The translations under genes were made by a program, and so were the position numbers. From Bradyrhizobium manausense (GTDB lineage: Bacteria > Pseudomonadota > Alphaproteobacteria > Rhizobiales > Xanthobacteraceae), in the NCBI RefSeq assembly GCF_018129685.1, contig NZ_JAFCLG010000002.1:397377-429376 (forward strand): 32,000 nt of DNA, read 5' to 3'. Within the stretch, counting starts at the first letter, position 1. Each line of letters opens with the position of its first letter. The notes beneath the pieces are model-generated. The model was not told the DNA's origin and made no database searches. It saw only the letters and a program-made list of their open reading frames with translations. Below, piece by piece: positions 10,836 through 32,000 of the stretch.

Positions 10836-11681
10836 TTACCGCGTCTCTTGGGATCCGGCAGATCCGAAAAATCGCAATATCTGATTTTGCATGGGCGGCC
10901 AGTCATTATGCGAGCCGCCTCCCTCACAGTAAACGGTCATCCCGTTGGGTGCGCAACCTTCGAATGCTAGGCAGCCACTGGCTTGCGGTGCGGGCGGTTT
11001 TGCGATGTCGCAGGCATTGCAGCGCGCCCACCACAGGGCGGCTTCCTTTCCCCAGCCCGGAAAATGTGTGTCCTGCTTGCCGTGCATGACCATCACCGGA
11101 ATGGGCTTCGGGCATCGAAAGGCTTCGAGGTCTTTCCGAGAGAAGCCCGCGGCGCTCGGAGCAATTGCCGACACGGTGCCTGTAGTCTCTTCCAGAACGG
11201 CGAGCGCAATCGACACCGTTCCGCCATCGGAGTGGCCGGTCGCATACACTCGATTTGGATCGACGCACCAAACGGCGGCAACTTCTTTAGGTAGCTGCGC
11301 AAGCTTTTCTATCGTCTTCACCGATAGAGGACGGCTACCGACATAAACCACGACGAAGCCGCTGCGGGTTGCCTCGGTGGTGAGGCGGGTGAGGGATTCG
11401 CTCTGTTTCGCATCATAGCCCGCCGGCGCATAGACGACGAGCAGCGGATGCGCATAGGTCGGATCGAGGTTTGCAGGCGCCCTCACGTTATAATGAAAGC
11501 CATCGCGCGATGTAAGGCCGTCGGTGGCACCTGGTCCGGCCGGCTTGCTGCCGGGGGAACAGGAGCCGCGGCGCACAGCGTGCGCATAGTCGAAGCTGAC
11601 GACCGAAGTCCCCTCCGGCGGCTCCGATGATCCGGAGCATCCAGAACACGATGCCACCACAAGCGCAATTACAACGCGCAT
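10836..11681 (-). CDS. Secreted or lipoprotein alpha/beta-hydrolase, PHB-depolymerase/feruloyl-esterase-like (LpqC-type)
   Basis: GHSDGG nucleophile elbow in the context ..DPNRVYATGHSDGGTVS.., and a Cys-rich C-terminal region. MRVVIALVVASCSGC gives a lipobox-like VASC. The start is uncertain (ATG 11681 versus GTG 11765). Confidence 0.7.
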   Translation of the reverse strand: MRVVIALVVASCSGCSGSSEPPEGTSVVSFDYAHAVRRGSCSPGSKPAGPGATDGLTSRDGFHYNVRAPANLDPTYAHPLLVVYAPAGYDAKQSESLTRLTTEATRSGFVVVYVGSRPLSVKTIEKLAQLPKEVAAVWCVDPNRVYATGHSDGGTVSIALAVLEETTGTVSAIAPSAAGFSRKDLEAFRCPKPIPVMVMHGKQDTHFPGWGKEAALWWARCNACDIAKPPAPQASGCLAFEGCAPNGMTVYCEGGGSHNDWPPMQNQILRFFGSAGSQETR

Positions 11682-11779
11682 CCTCAGCTTCGCCTCGCCG
11701 GTCGCGCTAGCTCTCCTAGCGAGGTTGGCGGCAAGGCCCGTTCCCCCTCCTGGCCAAACAATCACCGGCCTTATCCCAG

Positions 11780-12388
11780 CTAGTTTGGTGGTATGCTGAG
11801 GCGGGCGTCCAATTTCTTTCTGACACGTGCCGAATAACGATATAAGGCAAATCCTACCAATGGAACTACGATGAAAAGCAGGTATTTCTCGTAGAACGAC
11901 TTTCCAGAAGCCACACTGAAGGGAAACCGTGAGACGTATTCGCCCTTTGCGCCCGCGGTAACCAGTCCGATAAATTTTCCAGCCTTATCGAACGTATATT
12001 CCAAGGCAATGCTGCCAGAGGGGTAAACTTTGGGCTGCAGGTGCACAACGGTGATGGTCTCCAAATTGCTGTTGTCTCCCGTATCCCGCACGATTCGCAC
12101 CTCGATCGGGATGTCGCGCAGAGCATCATCAACCGCGTCCAGCACCACCACCGTTTTGCCGGTCTCCGGAATGTCTTCGCAGAACTCCCTGCTGCCGGTT
12201 GCTTGCGGCTGGTACCCGGTAAAGTGCATGATGTATGCTCCCAATCGGAGCCTACACACGTCATTTTCCATACTGACGCCACCGTGGGAAGAGGCCGGCT
12301 GGGACGACAAAACCAGCAGAGGCACTGCAAACGAAAGGCCGCGCAATGCCGATCTGGAGTACCTCCTGATCGTGAGCTTATCGACCAT
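11780..12388 (-). CDS. Exported protein with a C-terminal membrane anchor, in the PmoD/AmoD position of the CuMMO operon. Family not verified.
   Basis: Signal peptide (..FAVPLLVLSSQPASSHG), a ~140-aa soluble domain with a single Cys (ENDVCRLRLGAYIMHF), one C-terminal TM (LLFIVVPLVGFALY) and a basic tail. It starts 29 nt after the pmoB stop on the same strand. Confidence 0.6.
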   Translation of the reverse strand: MVDKLTIRRYSRSALRGLSFAVPLLVLSSQPASSHGGVSMENDVCRLRLGAYIMHFTGYQPQATGSREFCEDIPETGKTVVVLDAVDDALRDIPIEVRIVRDTGDNSNLETITVVHLQPKVYPSGSIALEYTFDKAGKFIGLVTAGAKGEYVSRFPFSVASGKSFYEKYLLFIVVPLVGFALYRYSARVRKKLDARLSIPPN

Positions 12389-12417
12389 CGCGCAGCTTCG
12401 TCCTATTAAACCTGGCT

Positions 12418-13677
12418 TCAGATCGTCTTTTTGAAGACTGGAACAATGGGCCCGTATACTTCGCTCATGGAGCGGTTGCCTTTCCCGTCATAGAAAAACA
12501 GCAATCCGCCCATTCTACTGTCAACGTTAGAAAGAAAGCTCACCAAACGTTCTACTTCCCATGCCGCATCCGTTGTATCCAGGTTCACCAGACGGCTTTC
12601 ACCAGGTGCAAGCGGCTCCGGATGGTCGATGACAAGGCCGTTCCGGGGGACCAGCTCCTTCGGAAATTTCGAACTGACTGCCGCCACCGCCGCAGGAAGA
12701 CTCTTATTTATGAAACGCAGGTTAGCGGTGGTGAACTCGCCAACGCTCACGGGTTGATCGGACGTATTGGTCATCTCTACGCTCAGGCGCATGGACCGAC
12801 CGGGAACGTCGTACTCGGCCCTCTTGAACTTGATTTCAACCGCGTGGGGCGGCTTGGGCAGTGGTGGAGTGGAAAGAGACCCCGATTGAAGCGGAACCAG
12901 TTCTGGAAACTCGGACGTCGTTCTGGTGTATCCGACCAGCACCACGATCGCCAAAAGGACCAGCAGGGCCGCCGCAACTTTGTCGTCCATCGGCGTGATG
13001 AGAAGGTCCTCTCGCCCCTTCTTGACCACGAGCCAGCGCGAAATGATGAGGGGCCTGCGCAGCCACCATAGGATCCACACCGCGGCAATCAGCCCGAACC
13101 CAAACTGCCACATCTGCACGCGTGAAACGCCAAACGTTTGCAGATCGTCGATCTTGTTTCCAGTCAAGGTCGTGAGCGGATCCTTGAAATCCGCTTCGTT
13201 GCCGCTGACAGTTATCCATTCTCCCGGCCCAACGACCGCCCCGGCCCCATGGATGTTCATGACCGGATGAAGGTGCCACTGTCCCACCTTACGCGCCTTC
13301 ATAACGAGTTTGAAGTCATAATCCCGTCCGACGATCAAACCCTTGGTGGACTGCCGTGCGGGAATTTCGTTGATGTACGATTCTACGCGGGTCATGACGG
13401 CGCCGGGCGAGCCGTTGGAAAGGAACACCAGATTGGGCAGACTCACCGAATCCGGCCAATCGTTCAATAAGTGAAACTTGCCCTGGACGGTTACTGTATC
13501 GTTGACGTTAAGCGCATCGGTTGACCAAGTGACGTCATACCAATGCACAGTGCGCGTTCTGATGTAAGGCTCGGTCGCCCGCTCGCCGTGCGCGAATGCG
13601 GCCTGATCCATAAGGGAAAATAGCAATGTCGTCGCGGCCCAAACGAGCAACGTCGCCTTTTTCATTATCTTGCTCAT
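12418..13677 (-). CDS. pmoB: Copper membrane monooxygenase subunit B (PmoB/AmoB family)
   Basis: The signal peptide ends AFA, so the mature N-terminus is HGERATEPYIRTRTVHWYDVTW (compare PmoB HGEKSQAAFMRMRTIHWYD). The WHLHPV HxH motif, two central TM helices and a C-terminal cupredoxin-like domain are present. The start overlaps the pmoA stop (ATGA, 13674-13677). Confidence 0.9.
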   Translation of the reverse strand: MSKIMKKATLLVWAATTLLFSLMDQAAFAHGERATEPYIRTRTVHWYDVTWSTDALNVNDTVTVQGKFHLLNDWPDSVSLPNLVFLSNGSPGAVMTRVESYINEIPARQSTKGLIVGRDYDFKLVMKARKVGQWHLHPVMNIHGAGAVVGPGEWITVSGNEADFKDPLTTLTGNKIDDLQTFGVSRVQMWQFGFGLIAAVWILWWLRRPLIISRWLVVKKGREDLLITPMDDKVAAALLVLLAIVVLVGYTRTTSEFPELVPLQSGSLSTPPLPKPPHAVEIKFKRAEYDVPGRSMRLSVEMTNTSDQPVSVGEFTTANLRFINKSLPAAVAAVSSKFPKELVPRNGLVIDHPEPLAPGESRLVNLDTTDAAWEVERLVSFLSNVDSRMGGLLFFYDGKGNRSMSEVYGPIVPVFKKTI

Positions 13678-14477
13678 AGAGCACCCGCATCGATTTTAGC
13701 GCCATAAAGCTCCTTGAAGCGGTATCCCACCGGTATGTATTTGGGTGTGCAGGCGACCACACCCATCAACCAGAACACCGAGTAGGCGAACATGCAAACG
13801 AACGCAGAAAAGAACGCTGAGACCCAGTTGGCGGAGTCGCCGAACGTGCGCAAGGTTCCGCGTTCGATAATTCTTATGTATTCAGGCGTGCCGGAACGAG
13901 GGAAGACGTAGCCGATGATATCGGCAACAGACGCCATCTCACCCATATGCTCTGCTGGCTGGAAATATGGCGCCAGATAAATCCAGTTTGTCGGAAAGAA
14001 CGAGAGACCATAAATAACGCCGCCGAACACGGCCGTTATAACCCAGCTTCGGCTCAGCACAAGGATGAAGTCGAGTGCCATCGCTCCGACTAGACCGGTC
14101 GCTGGAACAACGAGACTGAGCGGGAAGTAGGCCATGCCTTCCCAAGCATGGTATCTGACAATCCAGACGCCGATCAGAAACAGAAGTGCGCTAGCTGTCG
14201 CTCCGATTGGCAGGCGAAATAGAGTCCAGAAGATCGCCTGAAATGCCGCGGCCGACATTATGGAGACTATCGGCGTTATCAGAATCCAATACTGTCTGTC
14301 TTTCCAGTCAATAAAAAAATCCCAGTCCCCAGCGAAAAGGAGAAAATGGATGTGCGTAACGGACCATACAAGGAAGGCAGCTATGACGACAATCAGGTAG
14401 TCGAAAGTTCGTGAATAGCGCGCTATTCTTGGCGACATTTCTGCCGCAGCTAAAATTGCTTGATCGTTGTCAGTCAT
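13674..14477 (-). CDS. pmoA: Copper membrane monooxygenase subunit A (PmoA/AmoA family)
   Basis: Blocks GDWDFFIDWKDRQYW, FRLPIGAT, VRYHAWEGMAYFPLSLVVPA, SWVITAVFGG and GTPEYIRIIERGTLRTFG are collinear with conserved PmoA/AmoA blocks. Confidence 0.92.
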   Translation of the reverse strand: MTDNDQAILAAAEMSPRIARYSRTFDYLIVVIAAFLVWSVTHIHFLLFAGDWDFFIDWKDRQYWILITPIVSIMSAAAFQAIFWTLFRLPIGATASALLFLIGVWIVRYHAWEGMAYFPLSLVVPATGLVGAMALDFILVLSRSWVITAVFGGVIYGLSFFPTNWIYLAPYFQPAEHMGEMASVADIIGYVFPRSGTPEYIRIIERGTLRTFGDSANWVSAFFSAFVCMFAYSVFWLMGVVACTPKYIPVGYRFKELYGAKIDAGAL

Positions 14478-14480
14478 GCT

Positions 14481-14490
14481 CCCCCCCCCC
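14481..14490 (-). repeat. G10 homopolymer (C10 on the + strand) 3 nt upstream of the pmoA ATG, occupying the SD position
   Basis: Read directly: 14471 cagtcatgct cccccccccc ggtaattc. On the mRNA strand this is ..ACCGGGGGGGGGGAGCATG. Confidence 0.9.
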
Positions 14491-14532
14491 GGTAATTCGT
14501 ATTCTTATGATTAGGCAACGGTTCTTTGCCGA

Positions 14533-14580
14533 AGGCGGTGTCCTACCTGTCAGTCAGTCGATTCAGCAGAGACACCGCCT
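14533..14580 (-). promoter_or_regulatory. Perfect 10-bp stem with a 28-nt loop in the pmoC-pmoA intergenic spacer (candidate mRNA processing or stability element)
   Basis: AGGCGGTGTC (14533-14542) is the exact reverse complement of GACACCGCCT (14571-14580). No U-tract follows on the mRNA strand, so this is not a classical intrinsic terminator. Confidence 0.4.
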
Positions 14581-14620
14581 ACAGTCGCATTGTCCGCCAT
14601 CGCCGGCATCAGCCAAGGCG

Positions 14621-15400
14621 TCAGGCTTTCGCCAAGTTTGCGCCATCGATCTCTTTGAAAAGCTCCGCCATCCTCATGGTCGCCTGAAGAAGGACGCCGC
14701 CAAGAGCAAAGCCGGTCCACCCAAGAACCGGGAAGCCCCAATGGAGCGGATGGCTGAAGATTTCTTCAGTGAGCCAGAACGCGTGGCCCCACTCGTTATA
14801 GCCAAGGTTCGGCAGAATGAGCCCGGGCCCGAGCACAGCCATGATGAGCGGCACCGAATAGCCTTTTGAGAATTTGGGAATCCGCGTGGTAGCATATAGA
14901 AGGCTGCTAACGCCCAAGATGATATACAGTGGAATACAAGCGTAAAATACGACGATATGGCTGGGAGTAAGCGCGGTGTCGCGAATCACGGTTTGATGCC
15001 AAGTGGCATCGCTCTCACCAAAGAAGCTAGCGATCCAAAGAAAAGAAAACGTATACAGCAAGAACCACGCGACGAGGCTAAAGTAGCGGCGCAGTTCCGT
15101 TTCGGCGTCGATTTTGTCGAGGTTCTTATCCCGGGTGAGCCAAAGGTAGGCCCAAATGGCGAAGCCCACCCCGAAAATAAGCGGTACCTCGACTTTGAAC
15201 AGCGTCAGCCAGTAGGTCGCAAATTCGGGGGATGTCGAATCCAGGCCGTACTTGAATGCAAATGCCTGCTGGTAAAGCCGAAGCCCTACGTAGATGGCGA
15301 GCAGCACTCCCCAGGAGATGGCCACCGGCACGAGATTGATAAGCTTTTTCGTATGTTGCGGGTCAGCCGCCCGCGGCTCAGATTCTAAGATGGCATGCAT
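14621..15400 (-). CDS. pmoC: Copper membrane monooxygenase subunit C (PmoC/AmoC family)
   Basis: ESDATWHQTVIRDTALTPSHIV contains the D..H..H metal site. NEWGHAFWLTEEIFSHPLHWGF contains the N..H..H site. I prefer the ATG at 15400 (MHAILE..), 8 nt behind GAGGAGG. The track start at 15436 adds 12 codons. Confidence 0.92.
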   Translation of the reverse strand: MHAILESEPRAADPQHTKKLINLVPVAISWGVLLAIYVGLRLYQQAFAFKYGLDSTSPEFATYWLTLFKVEVPLIFGVGFAIWAYLWLTRDKNLDKIDAETELRRYFSLVAWFLLYTFSFLWIASFFGESDATWHQTVIRDTALTPSHIVVFYACIPLYIILGVSSLLYATTRIPKFSKGYSVPLIMAVLGPGLILPNLGYNEWGHAFWLTEEIFSHPLHWGFPVLGWTGFALGGVLLQATMRMAELFKEIDGANLAKA

Positions 15401-15581
15401 AGTCCCGCCTCCTCTCGCTGATGATAACTTAGTCAACTATTGTCCTATGACTTGGGATACGGTCCTTTAGTATTAGGGTCCCACCTGCCCGCGGTCGTTG
15501 CTGAAGCGCCTGACGGACCTATCCGACTGGCGTCCGGCCCAAGGCCCTGATCCCGGAAAGTGGATTCCGGTATCTTGGCCT

Positions 15582-19074: not shown

Positions 19075-19530
19075 TCGAGGTGGGAAGAAGAGCTTGCGCG
19101 CTGGCTTGAGCCGTTCCTGGATTGCCTGGGTCACAGGGCGCGCCGAGCGATCGCAAGAGCGTCCAGCCTATGGCGGCGCGGCTGGCGCCGGGCGACTATG
19201 ACCAGTTGCACCATTTCATCGCTGATGGCGTCTGGGATGCGGCGCCGTTGGAGTCGGACCTGTTGATTCAGGCCGACCGCCTCGTCGGCGGCAAAGATGC
19301 GGTGCCGGTCATCAATGACACAGCGATTCCGATGAAGGGCGATCGTTCGGTTGGTGTCGCTCCGCAACATGTCTCATCTCTCGGCAAGATGGCCAATTGC
19401 CAAACATTGGTGTCGCTGACGCTTGCGCGGGGTGAAGTGCCGGTAATGGTGGCATTACGTCTCTTCGTTCCCGGGAGCTGGACGAGCAATCCGGTGCGTT
19501 TGAAGCGTGCGGGCGTTCCAGTCTAGCACC
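19075..19530 (+). mobile_element. IS701-family transposase 5' fragment (~150 codons, frameshifted, truncated)
   Basis: WEEELARWLEPFLDCLGHRARR.. is followed, after a frame change, by DRKSVQPMAARLAPGDYDQLHHFIADGVWDAAPLESDLLIQADRLVGG..VINDTAIPMKGDRSVGVAPQ..GKMANCQTLVSLTLARGEVPVMVALRLF.P.SWTS. This is the typical N-terminal region of IS701-type DDE transposases. Confidence 0.65.
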
Positions 19531-26187: not shown

Positions 26188-27906
26188 TTATTGAACCGCA
26201 AAGACGAACAATGCGCCGCCTTCTGGCGCGGCGGCAGTCATTTTCTTGCCCACATCTCCAAGGAACGCCGGAAGAGATGCGGTACGGCCAACGACCACGG
26301 CTACATATTGCTTGCCGTCCACCGAATAGGTGACCGGACCAGCGCCGATACCAGAACCAAGGTTTTTCTTCCAGAGAATCTTACCATTTTTCGCATCGAT
26401 CGCGTGGAAGTCGCCGTGCAGGTTGCCGTAAAATACAAGGTTGCCTCCGGTCGCCAATGTACCGCCGTTAAAAGGCAGGTCCTGCTTGATCGACCAGACC
26501 TTCTTGCTGTTCACCGGATCCCAAGCTACGAGTTCGCCAAGGAATCCGCCTGGGCCTTCCTTGGTCGGAAATTCGGCGCCGAGGTAGAAGACGCCGCGCT
26601 TGTAGGAGACATCGCTCACCGACCAATCCATGCAGACGTTGTTGGTCGGAATATAGACGAGGCCGGTTTCCGGACTGAATGACATCGGCTGCCAGTTCTT
26701 GCCGCCGATCAGGTTTGGACAGATGTCCTTGGCGGGATGGCCGGGACCTGGGCGCTTGTCAGGATCCTCGACCGCTCGCATTGTGGTTACGTCCCATTTC
26801 TTGGCCCAGTTGGTCGAAGCGACGAATTTTTCCGCCGAAAGAACCTTTCCGGTATCGCGATTGGCGACGAAGAAGAAGCCGTTGCGATCCGCCTTCATTA
26901 ACGCCGGAACTTCCTTTCCATCCATTTTCAGGTTGGCAAGGACGAGTTCGTTCACGCCGTCATAATCCCAAGCGTCAGCGGGAGTCTGCTGAATGTGCCA
27001 CTTGATCTTGCCGGTGTTGGGATCGAGCGCAAGCGTCGACGCCGTGTAGAGGTTTGTCAGCTTGCCGAAATTGCCATCACCAGTGGACCGAACGCCAGTG
27101 TTCCAGGGGCCAGGGTTGCTGGTGCCCCAGTAAACCGTATCGGATTTGGCATCATAAGAGCCGACCAGCCATGCAGCACCACCACCATGCAGCCCGGTGT
27201 CGCCCTTCCATGTGTCGCTGCCAGGCTCGCCTGGTGCCGGAACGGTGAAGGTCTGCCAGACCTGTTTGCCGGTGGCGATGTCGAACGCCTGAAGCGATCC
27301 GCGAACACCATATTCGCCGCCGCCAAAGCCGGTGATGACCTTATCGCGCACCACCAACGGCGGCGATGTGATGACCGATCCCTGCTTGTAATCGACAACG
27401 GTCGTGGTCCAGATCGCCTTACCTGTCGCGGCATCAAGCGCCGTCAGCTTACCGTCAAGGCGCCCGACAAACAGCTTGCCGTCGGCATACGATACACCTC
27501 GATTATTCACGTCGCAGCAGGCGTATTGCAGCACGTCATCGGGAATTTCCGGCTCATAGGTCCACTTGCGCGCGCCAGTCGCGGCATCGAGCGCATAAAC
27601 GTATTTCGGACCCCACGATGTGGTCACATAAAGCGTATTGCCGATGACGAGCGGCGAGGACTCATTCGAGCGCAATGATGCGAGTGAGAACGAATACACC
27701 AGCGACAGCTTGCCGACGTTCTCGGCGTTGATTTGCTTAAGCGGGCTGAAGCGCGTGTTGGCGTAATCGTGCCCTGCGACGGCCCACTGATTAGAATCGG
27801 ACACTGCTTTGACGACCGAGTCGTTGGCGCTTACGCTAAACGTCCCGGCAACCAGACTGGCGACGATGGACACGCCGGCCAAGAATCCCCTGCTCCTCAA
27901 CGTCAT
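26188..27906 (-). CDS. xoxF: PQQ-dependent methanol/ethanol-family dehydrogenase, XoxF-type (lanthanide-ligand Asp present)
   Basis: Signal peptide, then ..NQWAVAGHDYANTRFSPLKQIN... Vicinal Cys pair at YACCDVNNRG, plus GGGEYGVRG and WGTSNPGPWN. WDYDGVNE carries the D-Y-D motif (codons 26959-26967). The second Asp distinguishes Ln-dependent XoxF/ExaF/PedH enzymes from Ca-dependent MxaF (D-Y-A). SD GGGAGGATACAG-ATG. Confidence 0.88.
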   Translation of the reverse strand: MTLRSRGFLAGVSIVASLVAGTFSVSANDSVVKAVSDSNQWAVAGHDYANTRFSPLKQINAENVGKLSLVYSFSLASLRSNESSPLVIGNTLYVTTSWGPKYVYALDAATGARKWTYEPEIPDDVLQYACCDVNNRGVSYADGKLFVGRLDGKLTALDAATGKAIWTTTVVDYKQGSVITSPPLVVRDKVITGFGGGEYGVRGSLQAFDIATGKQVWQTFTVPAPGEPGSDTWKGDTGLHGGGAAWLVGSYDAKSDTVYWGTSNPGPWNTGVRSTGDGNFGKLTNLYTASTLALDPNTGKIKWHIQQTPADAWDYDGVNELVLANLKMDGKEVPALMKADRNGFFFVANRDTGKVLSAEKFVASTNWAKKWDVTTMRAVEDPDKRPGPGHPAKDICPNLIGGKNWQPMSFSPETGLVYIPTNNVCMDWSVSDVSYKRGVFYLGAEFPTKEGPGGFLGELVAWDPVNSKKVWSIKQDLPFNGGTLATGGNLVFYGNLHGDFHAIDAKNGKILWKKNLGSGIGAGPVTYSVDGKQYVAVVVGRTASLPAFLGDVGKKMTAAAPEGGALFVFAVQ

Positions 27907-29280: not shown

Positions 29281-29652
29281 ATGTCGCTTCGTACTCTCCT
29301 GACCGTCGCTGCTTTTGCAGTATGGCCCAACTGGGCGTTTGCCCATGCCGCGCTGGTTGGATCGAGTCCTGGCAGCAGGGCTGTGGTCACTCACATGCCC
29401 GATCATATCGATCTTTGTTTCAATGAGCCTGTCGAGGTCAAGTTCTCCACCGTGCAGATCACAGATGAAAAGGGCACGACCATACCTATTTCGGAGCTTA
29501 AGCACGGCGCCGACCCCAAGTGTCTTAGCGCTACCGTTCCGCCAGCGGCTGCAGGGATTTATACAGTGAAGTACCGCGTGCTCTCTCAGGACGGTCATGT
29601 GGTTAAATACGGCTTCCAGTTCACGGTGAGGGAAAGACAGCCTGTACCGTGA
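29281..29652 (+). CDS. copC: Periplasmic copper-binding protein CopC
   Basis: The signal peptide ends WAFA, so the mature N-terminus is HAALVGSSP. This is followed by ..IDLCFNEPVEVKFSTVQITDEKG..GIYTVKYRVLSQDGHVVKYGFQFTV, the CopC/YobA pattern with an N-terminal His. The ATG at 29281 sits behind GGTGGAGAAG. The track start at 29197 adds 28 codons. Confidence 0.88.
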   Translation: MSLRTLLTVAAFAVWPNWAFAHAALVGSSPGSRAVVTHMPDHIDLCFNEPVEVKFSTVQITDEKGTTIPISELKHGADPKCLSATVPPAAAGIYTVKYRVLSQDGHVVKYGFQFTVRERQPVP

Positions 29653-31646
29653 CAATCGTTGCCTTCATCGCAGTTTGGAAGACTTTAGGAACCCTGTGCC
29701 TTGCGTGGTTGATCGGCGGGCCCGTTTTCGTCTGGTTGAGCGGACGCTCCAAAGAAAAGGTCATTTTGTCATGGCGTTCTGTTGTCAGAAGAAGCTTTCC
29801 GTGGGCAGTGCCCCTGTTCATTCTGTCAATCATTTTTGTCTTATTTGCTGAGGCTGCGTCGACAGCTGAGCTATCGCTTATAGAGAATCTTGCCCGCCCC
29901 GATGTGCTGAGGACTTTCGCGTTTCAAACACGGGTAGGCCAGTTGTCTATGTTCAGACTGATCGCAGGTATGGCGTTGTTTGCGCCGACGATGTTTCTGG
30001 CAAAAGCCGCGACCGACCACGCAGAAGAGACCGGGCTGTTTTTGGTGCTGGTGGTCGCCGCCGTGGTCTGCGCAATGGGGCCGTTGAACGGACACGCTGG
30101 TGCGGACATCGGATGGTCAACAGCCTGTCGTATCATTCACGTATGCGCCGTCAGCATATGGATTGGGGGCCTGCCTGGTTGGCTAGGGCTCGTATTTTTG
30201 GTCGCAAAGGCTCCAGACATACACCGTTGTGCCTACGCCTTCTCCGCCATGCTCCAGTTCTCTCGTTTGGCGATCATCTGTATGGCTACGACGATCGTTT
30301 CGGGGGCATTTATTGCTTCTGAATATGTTGGCAGTCAGGGCGATCTTTTGGGCACTCCCTATGGGCTCGCGATTTGCGGTAAAGCGCTGCTATTGCTTGG
30401 CGTATTAGCGATTGCGAACCTCGTCCGCGCGGTGCTGCTGCCGCAGCTTCGGTGCGCTGAGCCAACGACTGCCTTTCATATGACGGCGGTACGCTGGGTA
30501 ACTCTCGAATTTACATTGGCGGTGGGTATTGTCGGCTTGGCCAGCCTTCTCTCGCAACTGACGCCTGCGCTCCATGATCAGCCGTATTGGTGGTTACCGC
30601 TGCGTATATCGATTGCCGCAACTTGGCCAGTCCCTTCTACTCGGATGTTTGTTGCGGGAGGGCTGCTGATTGCGGTCGCCGGATCTTTGATTGCGTGCCG
30701 TTACTTCGCGCCTGGCCTCTGGCGGCGCTCCGCGTTAGGTGTCTCCGTATTGGCAGGGGGCGCCGTGGCTCTGTCGCAACTCGCCGTGCCGAGTTTTCCA
30801 GATACATTTCGCCGATCTGAAGTTCCTTACCTGACATTGTCCATTTTCAGGGGAAAACAACTCTTCGAAGATAATTGCACTGTCTGTCATGGAATGGGCG
30901 GGCGCGGCGACGGACCAGGTGGAAAGTCGTTGAGGCGACCACCAGCCGATCTCACTGCGCCGCATACGGCGCTTCATACTGCGGGAGACATGTTCTGGTG
31001 GATCTCCAATGGAATACCAGAAAGCGGAATGCCGGGATTTTCCACGGCCTTTACGGAGCTGGACCGCTGGGATGTAATCAACTTCATGCGCGCATTTTCG
31101 CAAGGCTTCGAGGCACGCGTGCTTTCGCTTTCTATTATACCATTGCGCCCCTGGGTCGGTGCACCGAACTTTTACTTCGAAAGAGTTGGAGGCGAACCAA
31201 AGGCGCTGAGTGATTATCGGGACCACACCAATGTGCTTCTTGTGTTCTTTTCCCCCGAGAATAAACAAGATCTTGAAAGGTTGCACACCTTGGCATCGGC
31301 GCGGGTTAAGCTGCTTGCTGAGGGGCTGGAAATACTCGTTGTTGCTCGTAGCGAGAAGCCATTTCCGAACAATGGCCTTACGGTGGTCGACGACTCAACT
31401 GGGGAGGTGCGGGAGAGCTATTACCTTTTTGCTAGGACCTTGCAAGATCAGGGCGATGGAGAATCAATAGAGATGAAAAAGGACCGCATTGAGTTTCTCA
31501 TCGATCGGTTTGGTTACATCCGGGCTCGATGGATTCCCCAAGACGAAAAAGAAGGGTGGTTCAATACCGAGCGTTTGAGGGAGGAAATCGCCAAACTAAA
31601 TACGGAGCCGCGCATATTCCCGCCGCCCGACGATCATGTCCATTGA
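29649..31646 (+). CDS. copD: Three-domain fusion: CopD polytopic membrane domain, mono-haem cytochrome c, and a Cys-less thioredoxin/peroxiredoxin-like domain
   Basis: The GTG start overlaps the copC stop (GTGA). The first ~390 aa form multiple TM helices with CopD-like blocks (..IHVCAVSIWIGGLPGW..). The cytochrome part is GKQLFEDNCTVCHGMGGRGDG....IPESGMPGF, with the CTVCH codons at 30876-30890. The tail is ..KALSDYRDHTNVLLVFFSPENKQDLERL...LEILVV....FLIDRFGYIRARW.., a redoxin fold pattern lacking CxxC. It ends PPPDDHVH. Confidence 0.85.
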   Translation: MTIVAFIAVWKTLGTLCLAWLIGGPVFVWLSGRSKEKVILSWRSVVRRSFPWAVPLFILSIIFVLFAEAASTAELSLIENLARPDVLRTFAFQTRVGQLSMFRLIAGMALFAPTMFLAKAATDHAEETGLFLVLVVAAVVCAMGPLNGHAGADIGWSTACRIIHVCAVSIWIGGLPGWLGLVFLVAKAPDIHRCAYAFSAMLQFSRLAIICMATTIVSGAFIASEYVGSQGDLLGTPYGLAICGKALLLLGVLAIANLVRAVLLPQLRCAEPTTAFHMTAVRWVTLEFTLAVGIVGLASLLSQLTPALHDQPYWWLPLRISIAATWPVPSTRMFVAGGLLIAVAGSLIACRYFAPGLWRRSALGVSVLAGGAVALSQLAVPSFPDTFRRSEVPYLTLSIFRGKQLFEDNCTVCHGMGGRGDGPGGKSLRRPPADLTAPHTALHTAGDMFWWISNGIPESGMPGFSTAFTELDRWDVINFMRAFSQGFEARVLSLSIIPLRPWVGAPNFYFERVGGEPKALSDYRDHTNVLLVFFSPENKQDLERLHTLASARVKLLAEGLEILVVARSEKPFPNNGLTVVDDSTGEVRESYYLFARTLQDQGDGESIEMKKDRIEFLIDRFGYIRARWIPQDEKEGWFNTERLREEIAKLNTEPRIFPPPDDHVH

Positions 31647-31681: not shown

Positions 31682-32000
31682 ATGAAAACCCAGCTGAAAA
31701 TTGTTATTGGTGTCTGTTTGTTCGCTACTAACCCGATGCAGGGGTCCTTTGCGCTTGCACAGGGTCATCGGCATGAGGGCTCCCCCACCATTCCGGTGCA
31801 AGGCGCGCTCCCCCGACAGACCTCGCCGTTGAAAATCTTGCTGCCTCGAACCGGCGACGAAGTCGGAACCCGACTTGCAATCATCTTCGAGACGTCCGCG
31901 AACTTGACGGCGAGCACTGAGTTAGCAAACGGACAGCACCTTCACATCGAATCTGACGACACCATGATGATGCCCGTCGCCGATCAGTTGATTCGGCTTG
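31682..32000 (+). CDS. Exported His/Met-containing protein (possibly DUF4399-like), 3' end beyond the window
   Basis: This ORF is not in the track because it runs off the edge. My translation is MKTQLKIVIGVCLFATNPMQGSFALAQGHRHEGSPTIPVQGALPRQTSPLKILLPRTGDEVGTRLAIIFETSANLTASTELANGQHLHIESDDTMMMPVADQLIRL.. SD AAAGGAAGAG. It starts 35 nt after copD. Confidence 0.5.
   Translation, partial: MKTQLKIVIGVCLFATNPMQGSFALAQGHRHEGSPTIPVQGALPRQTSPLKILLPRTGDEVGTRLAIIFETSANLTASTELANGQHLHIESDDTMMMPVADQLIRL

Follow-up and report, generated by a model that had tools for sequence, protein, structure and literature searches.

The stretch of DNA analysed here, hereafter the window, is a 32,000-nucleotide segment of the Bradyrhizobium manausense genome (NCBI RefSeq assembly GCF_018129685.1, contig NZ_JAFCLG010000002.1, positions 397,377 to 429,376 of the forward strand). 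At its end lie three genes: copC, a gene for a 665-residue protein in which a CopD domain is followed by a cytochrome c domain and a thioredoxin-like domain (the long-form CopD, or fusion), and a gene for a small His/Met protein. An operon for a copper membrane monooxygenase (CuMMO) is found in the same window. A preliminary description, made from the sequence alone, had read copC and the fusion gene as a plausible dedicated copper supply for the CuMMO. The positions of the features are collected in Table 1.

The motifs CTVCH, GMPGF, VLLVFFSPENKQD and the terminal PPPDDHVH were all found in the 665-residue open reading frame (ORF). The Pfam CopD family (PF05425) matched residues 201-301 with 58.5 bits against a cut-off of 32.1, which makes the protein a family member by the curated threshold. 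The NCBIfam CopD model (NF033808) gave 86.3 bits against an equivalog cut-off of 195, indicating that the long CopD is not a canonical equivalog. Pfam Cytochrom_C matched residues 401-481 with 53.5 bits (cut-off 21.3). This profile match, together with the CxxCH motif and the distal Met461, identifies a class I c-type cytochrome, haem attachment itself being predicted. The C-terminal 180 residues or so reached 17.2 bits with AhpC-TSA, under its cut-off of 26; a profile of 33 such C-terminal domains matched Mycobacterium tuberculosis AhpE (E 4e-7), ResA (2e-5) and TlpA (4e-4). An AlphaFold model of the long CopD, for which 28 homologues were used, had a mean predicted local distance difference test score (pLDDT) of 84.6, residues 662-665 being disordered (pLDDT <50). 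Foldseek searches with the C-terminal domain returned ResA, DsbE, TlpA, AhpE and Bcp (probability 1.0, target TM-score 0.72-0.79), and the haem domain matched cytochrome c552. The C-terminal domain of the long CopD contains no Cys, and therefore neither a peroxidatic Cys nor a CxxC active site; the position of the peroxidatic Cys is taken by a variable residue beside a three-residue deletion that shortens the loop. Pfam, profile and structure searches thus agree with the order given in the preliminary description, namely CopD, mono-haem cytochrome c and a Cys-less redoxin fold ending in PPPDDHVH. A Sco1/SenC-like chaperone was considered for the last domain and rejected, as there was no CxxxC, no Sco structure in the top 50 Foldseek matches and no Pfam SCO1-SenC match.

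Ten transmembrane helices were predicted by hydropathy, the first eight of them within the alignment to the CopD model. Six Lys/Arg residues lie in the first loop (residues 31-48), suggesting by the positive-inside rule that the N-terminus faces out. With ten helices, residues 384-665 would therefore be periplasmic, as required for a c-type cytochrome, and it is the two extra helices (residues 307-383) that are predicted to bring the chain back to the periplasm. The topology prediction that the preliminary description had called for thus places both the haem and the thioredoxin-like domains on the periplasmic side.

The start of copC is most plausibly the ATG at 29281, which is preceded by a Shine-Dalgarno-like box (GGAGAAG); in a 97%-identical Bradyrhizobium strain gene callers likewise give a copC of 123 residues. 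The signal peptide of CopC ends in WAFA and is followed by HAALV, so that the mature N-terminus is a His. CopC contains a D-x-H motif and lacks a Met-rich Cu(I) loop. In the raw sequence, the GTG with which the 665-residue ORF starts (29649-29651) overlaps the TGA stop of copC (29650-29652) as GTGA, and the two genes are translationally coupled. Both the N-terminal His and the overlap had been described from the sequence, and the ORF list bears them out. The third gene encodes an exported protein of 151 residues with a His-rich N-terminus and an immunoglobulin (Ig)-like beta-sandwich, in whose relatives H-L-H, M-P and His135 are invariant. It had no Pfam match and no Protein Data Bank (PDB) sequence match except His-tags, which leaves it outside the PCuAC/DUF461 proteins, and Foldseek returned generic Ig and fibronectin type III sandwiches only.

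Table 1. Features of the copC module and of its surroundings (window positions unless stated otherwise; TM, transmembrane; aa, amino acids)
Feature	Position	Strand	Basis or remark
copC	29281..29652	+	predicted periplasmic Cu(II)-binding protein; Pfam CopC E 7.5e-23
Long-form CopD (CopD::cytochrome c::thioredoxin-like), 665 aa	29649..31646	+	ORF list, Pfam, raw sequence
CopD core, residues 1-306, eight predicted TM helices	29649..30566	+	NCBIfam CopD residues 17-306; hydropathy
His149-His164 codons, periplasm-side His pair	30093..30140	+	invariant, 91/91 members
Periplasmic loop (His309, Trp314, Arg319) and two extra TM helices, residues 307-383	30567..30797	+	hydropathy, Lys/Arg counts, conservation
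Mono-haem class I cytochrome c domain, residues 384-484	30798..31100	+	Pfam Cytochrom_C, Foldseek
CTVCH codons, residues 410-414	30876-30890	+	haem-attachment motif
PHTALHT motif, residues 438-444	30960..30980	+	His pair H439/H443
Met461 codon, candidate haem ligand within GMPGF	31029-31031	+	98% conserved
Cys-less thioredoxin-fold domain, residues 485-657, ResA/TlpA/AhpE type	31101..31619	+	profile, Foldseek
Flexible tail PPPDDHVH, His-x-His-COOH end	31620..31643	+	low pLDDT
Small His/Met protein gene, third in module	31682..32000, continuing past the window to window-equivalent 32137 (L001:2183-2638)	+	
CuMMO operon xmoC-A-B and PmoD-like fourth gene	11780..15436	-	Pfam
309-aa hydrolase-like ORF	10836-11765	-	weak AXE1 match; downstream of PmoD-like gene
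Transposase fragments	19122-19526		between CuMMO operon and copC module
PQQ-dependent (XoxF-type) dehydrogenase with fused cytochrome	26188-27906	-	
Transposase fragment	L001:2650-3117 (window-equivalent 32149-32616)	-	just downstream of module

Conservation was computed over 91 full-length members of the family. Invariant residues were His149, His164, Trp171, Ser205, Lys245, Glu287, Trp314 and Arg319 in the CopD part with the loop that follows helix 8, Cys410, Cys413, His414, His439 and Asp447 in the cytochrome domain, and Arg544, Arg596, Asp619, Arg625 and Arg627 in the thioredoxin-like domain. His443 (98%), Met461 (98%), His309 (96%) and His663 (94%) were nearly so, and the aligned terminal residue was His in 83%. 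The loci of the collection scan had been chosen with patterns from the PHTALHT region, and the near-invariance of this motif is therefore partly due to selection. The GH...H...W...FS...K...E motifs of the CopD core are common to a YcnJ-like CopC-CopD of the same genome, in which the GH...H motif aligns with His149 and His164. By this motif alignment, the pair is likely to be the equivalent of His135/His154 of Escherichia coli YebZ, where two conserved periplasm-side His residues are required for copper import (PMC11923076). The thioredoxin-like domain lacks Cys in 69 of the 91 members, and CxxC occurs in none. In members of the Beijerinckiaceae/Methylocapsa type (L052, L056-L058, L060, L063, L065, L066, L068-L071, L074, L076, L079, L083, L084) it contains a pair of Cys at a distance of 38 residues, of which one lies in what was once the active-site loop, and the tail ends in His as HSQH or HDH; redox activity may have been retained in this group. 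Residue 613 (codon 31485-31487), which aligns with a conserved Arg of peroxiredoxins, is His in 79/91 members and Arg in the protein studied here.

A fusion of this kind could arise as an assembly or annotation artefact, three separate genes being joined by a sequencing error. We consider this explanation negligible. An uninterrupted frame of about 640-700 residues occurs in the window and in over 90 independent genomes, finished chromosomes included, so that the stop or frameshift between domains on which the preliminary description would have been abandoned does not exist. The same copC-side neighbourhood is present in the 97%-identical strain, and the same arrangement also occurs in metagenome contigs. 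Comparison with an 87%-identical relative gave a ratio of nonsynonymous to synonymous substitution rates (dN/dS) of 0.22 overall; the values by domain were 0.29 (CopD), 0.10 (cytochrome c) and 0.18 (thioredoxin-like), indicating purifying selection on each. When 1.84 billion representative proteins were searched exhaustively with the C-terminal domain, only 304 clusters were obtained, and nearly all matches lie at the extreme C-terminus of proteins of about 640-700 residues. Matches of about 205 residues were examined as candidate standalone thioredoxin-like domains; all start at the internal Met of GMPGF and are therefore shortened gene calls.

copCD genes have long been known beside amo/pmo operons (PMC6189053, PMC5960693, PMC13374858), and copC and pcoD correlate with the origin of ammonia oxidisers (PMC11135946). 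In about 45 of 80 loci related to ours, xmoC-A-B, a PmoD-like gene, copC, the fusion and the small-protein gene follow one another on one strand. This order was seen in Bradyrhizobium, Solimonas and other Nevskiales, Aquabacterium, Methylibium, Polaromonas and Rhodoferax. The protein type thus accompanies CuMMO genes in nitrifiers as well as in alkane oxidisers. In Nitrospira, copC is preceded by two or three PmoD/AmoD-like paralogues, and a homologue search seeded with the Nitrospira protein retrieved close Nitrospira relatives only. Seven other PmoB-positive Bradyrhizobium genomes carry the fusion 3-4 kb from pmoB. The PmoB Pfam family was present in 66 of the 78 genomes with a motif-selected relative and in none of 14 control genomes, a count biased towards CuMMO-linked members because the loci had been picked by PHTALHT-region patterns.

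Unbiased genome samples were searched with the C-terminal-domain profile. This profile also catches ordinary thioredoxin-fold proteins at E 1e-4 to 1e-10; the fusion was counted only at E 1e-20 or better in the Methylococcales and Bradyrhizobium samples, and in the Burkholderiales sample matches with E below 1e-30 were separated by hand. Among 401 Burkholderiales genomes, 11 were PmoB-positive and all 11 had the fusion, which was also detected in 7 of the 390 PmoB-negative genomes. The Bradyrhizobium sample (201 genomes) gave a similar picture, with the fusion in 8 of 8 PmoB-positive and 1 of 193 PmoB-negative genomes. The Methylococcales sample (251 genomes, 217 PmoB-positive) contained 8 carriers, none of them without PmoB, and all 8 belong to a divergent, Cycloclasticus-type PmoB score class. 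Five of the PmoB-positive Burkholderiales have multi-copy amoB and look like ammonia oxidisers. In G097 and G247, where both positions are listed and the genes are close together on one contig, amoB and a copy of the fusion are about 3-4 kb apart. The ammonia oxidiser Nitrosomonas europaea has two copies of the module. Of the Burkholderiales with the fusion and no PmoB match, several are small or incomplete bins (G443 is only 1.3 Mb) or carry weaker-scoring sister forms. The link of the module to CuMMO genes is thus neither universal nor exclusive, and it is well supported as regards gene distribution and synteny.

The window itself has a different layout. The CuMMO operon on the reverse strand is followed by signalling genes, insertion sequence (IS) remnants, a XoxF-type pyrroloquinoline quinone (PQQ)-dependent dehydrogenase and then the copC module on the forward strand. 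The long-form CopD therefore stands here outside an extended CuMMO operon, which is a contextual and not a structural feature of the family. The transposase fragments on both sides of the module fit an IS-mediated separation from xmoCAB. The G+C content of the module (54.7%) is close to that of xmoCAB (54.3%) and below that of the genome (63.6%), which fits a shared foreign origin; the 26/60 G+C previously given for positions 29821-29880 is correct (0.433). Genes of CO-dehydrogenase type (coxS-like) follow the downstream transposase fragment. Counterparts of the hydrolase-like ORF beside the PmoD-like gene adjoin CuMMO/copCD clusters in other genomes, with 71-73% identity in L006-L009 and further copies in L019, L024, L036, L049, L055, L067 and L080, and it may be a further accessory gene. 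A PQQ-dependent dehydrogenase is encoded within 10 kb of the copC-fusion pair in about a dozen loci (including L017, L022, L029-L031 and L038-L042), and in Polaromonas its gene stands between those for the PmoD-like protein and the small His/Met protein. Alcohol oxidation thus seems to be paired repeatedly with the CuMMO cluster. On contig 1 of the genome (L002:556-2160) we found the YcnJ-like CopC-CopD, which has a C-terminal extension. A YcnI-like protein with an N-terminal His is encoded just upstream, and the ycnI/ycnJ-like pair looks like a separate housekeeping copper import system.

We know of no settled account of how the active sites of ammonia, methane and alkane monooxygenases are supplied with copper, or of the oxidation state in which it arrives. 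Our preferred reading, which we hold with slightly better than even confidence, is that copC, the fusion gene and the gene for the small His/Met protein together make up a redox-assisted module, facing the periplasm, for copper acquisition and hand-off, and that this module belongs to the accessory set of the CuMMO. From motifs, topology and predicted folds we infer copper binding, haem attachment, a redox step and a recipient as follows. Cu(II) would be captured by the N-terminal His brace of CopC and passed on to His149/His164 in the permease core of CopD. An electron would then be exchanged between the bound copper and the tethered mono-haem cytochrome c, probably taking Cu(II) to Cu(I), the direction being uncertain, and copper would thereby be transported or set free in the right oxidation state. 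The Cys-less thioredoxin-fold domain, the His-x-His tail and the PHTALHT His pair would provide ligand or docking surfaces for a recipient, possibly the downstream His/Met protein, the PmoD-like protein or the monooxygenase. The chaperone role of the Cys-less domain and the Cu(II)/Cu(I) redox coupling that had been proposed from the sequence could both have their place in such a scheme. A more specific version is tentative, and we think it rather improbable. The tethered haem would provide the protein with its own cupric reductase, or redox gate for copper, coupling respiratory electrons to the copper loading of the CuMMO, and the PHTALHT pair and the His-x-His tail would together be the site from which copper is passed to the PmoD-like protein or the enzyme. 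If true, it would represent a missing metallation step of ammonia and alkane monooxygenases.

Several points weigh against assigning the module to the CuMMO in this way. The potential of a His/Met-ligated class I haem typically lies above that of tightly bound Cu(II)/Cu(I), so that reduction of CopC-bound Cu(II) is not obviously favourable. The copC module lies about 14 kb from the CuMMO operon on the opposite strand, and the fusion is 17.5 kb from pmoB on the same contig; as the module is unlinked from xmoCAB here, co-regulation should not be assumed. The Fisher p-values for the association (about 3e-17 in Burkholderiales and 2e-13 in Bradyrhizobium) are descriptive and overstate it, because related genomes are not independent. 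Pairwise identities of PmoB and the fusion pointed neither way (Pearson coefficient 0.77, Spearman coefficient 0.19). The two trees are only partly congruent, which limits the link. In the PmoB tree the sequence from the window is sister to that of Rhodoferax; in the fusion tree it is placed with Solimonas, Nevskia and alphaproteobacterial loci, and the Rhodoferax sequence with Polaromonas and Methylibium. The fusion was not found in 209 of the 217 PmoB-positive Methylococcales, indicating that the canonical gammaproteobacterial particulate methane monooxygenase works without the module. According to a review (PMC7558416), work on a copCD mutant of Methylosinus trichosporium OB3b placed these genes outside the copper switch and found them not critical for copper uptake; no mutant of any other family member is reported, and OB3b has methanobactin-based uptake.

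Long-form CopDs also occur in copper clusters of CuMMO-free genomes. In one of these, a Bradyrhizobium without a PmoB match (L106, G813:C38:139500-152500), copC and the long CopD are found with a CusF-like gene, and a cupredoxin gene is nearby, neighbours that fit copper handling. The long CopD of this genome scored 46 bits with AhpC-TSA, above threshold, yet contains no Cys. A second genome (G348) encodes a long-form CopD of 853 residues, and both proteins are Cys-less and end in His-x-His. The claim of the preliminary description therefore holds for the link to the CuMMO (8/8 Bradyrhizobium, 11/11 Burkholderiales, about 45 loci), but "dedicated" is too strong a word in view of the Methylococcales counts, the CuMMO-free sisters, the OB3b mutant and the detached position of the module in the window.

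Some of these observations would be explained if the module were a general copper homeostasis or resistance CopCD, its proximity to CuMMO genes reflecting high copper traffic and the extra domains tuning the permease. The source annotation is "copper resistance protein D", and CopC and CopD are treated as common in other prokaryotes (PMC6189053). The PmoB-free sisters beside a CusF-like gene and near a cupredoxin gene point the same way, as do the seven Burkholderiales with the fusion and no PmoB match and the review's statement on the OB3b mutant. However, the fusion is present in every PmoB-positive genome of two unbiased samples and lies inside the operon in about 45 loci, several of the PmoB-negative carriers are incomplete metagenome bins such as G443, and the genome studied here already has a YcnJ-type CopCD. 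In addition, the PHTALHT His pair was not found in the two CuMMO-free sisters examined (L106, L107), and it therefore separates CuMMO-linked members from these two. A general copper role is in our opinion unlikely. We give still less credit to the protein being an electron-transfer part, in which the anchored cytochrome c would feed the CuMMO or a CuA-type PmoD-like protein and the CopD helices would serve mainly as anchor or docking surface. The haem motif is invariant, the cytochrome domain is the most constrained of the three, and the gene lies in operons with xmoCAB and a PmoD-like gene; moreover, we know of no established physiological reductant of CuMMOs. Against such a role, the copper-import His pair and the other CopD core motifs are invariant, the gene is coupled to copC in every case, CuMMO-free genomes have proteins of this architecture too, and canonical gammaproteobacterial methanotrophs lack the fusion. 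Redox-assisted copper acquisition and hand-off to the CuMMO is thus the reading that we retain.

CuMMOs control nitrification and hydrocarbon turnover, and the long-form CopD family offers a concrete and widely conserved candidate for the delivery of copper to them. The His149/His164 pair, CxxCH, PHTALHT and the terminal His-x-His tail are evident targets for mutation. The sampling helps to delimit the family, which was found in all PmoB-positive Burkholderiales and Bradyrhizobium sampled and is nearly absent from canonical gammaproteobacterial methanotrophs. The locus described here adds modestly to this picture, with a module that is intact and under selection despite its separation from the monooxygenase operon.

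Each part of the module has relatives in known systems. TlpA, ResA and AhpE share the fold and the periplasmic location of the C-terminal domain, which differs from them in having neither CxxC nor peroxidatic Cys and in its added His-x-His tail. Fusion of CopD to an extracytoplasmic domain is also known from Bacillus subtilis YcnJ (CopC-CopD-YtkA) and Corynebacterium glutamicum CtiP (CopD-CtaG), in which the added domain serves the assembly of haem-copper oxidases (PMC13344008, PMC9145763); these fusions are precedents in favour of our preferred reading. Their appended domains are different and carry no haem, and the target in the present case would be the CuMMO; for YcnJ, no reductase is known according to its authors (PMC13344008). 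The YobA-YebZ-YebY (AZY) system of E. coli likewise consists of a CopC-type Cu(II) binder, an eight-helix CopD core with two periplasm-side His residues and a small periplasmic protein encoded downstream. However, YebZ is without the extra helices, the haem domain and the thioredoxin-like domain, and AZY is linked to MarR signalling and not to a monooxygenase. The third protein of AZY belongs to DUF2511, whereas the third protein here does not, having no Pfam match and a generic Ig-like fold. The closest counterpart is the long-form CopD of M. trichosporium OB3b. About 4% of proteobacterial CopDs, that of OB3b included, have been described as carrying a cytochrome cbb3 domain and a Sco1- or thioredoxin-like domain (PMC11923076, Commun Biol 2025). 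This one sentence is the published mention of the three-domain architecture, and no functional work on either the haem domain or the thioredoxin-like domain came up in our literature search. Compared by published description, the OB3b-type protein agrees with ours in domain order, in its copC partner and in its association with a CuMMO. In the present genome, by contrast, signalling genes and IS remnants, over about 14 kb, separate the module from the CuMMO operon, and it occurs in an alkane-type CuMMO lineage of Bradyrhizobium. The locus is therefore a rearranged yet intact member of an already published protein type.

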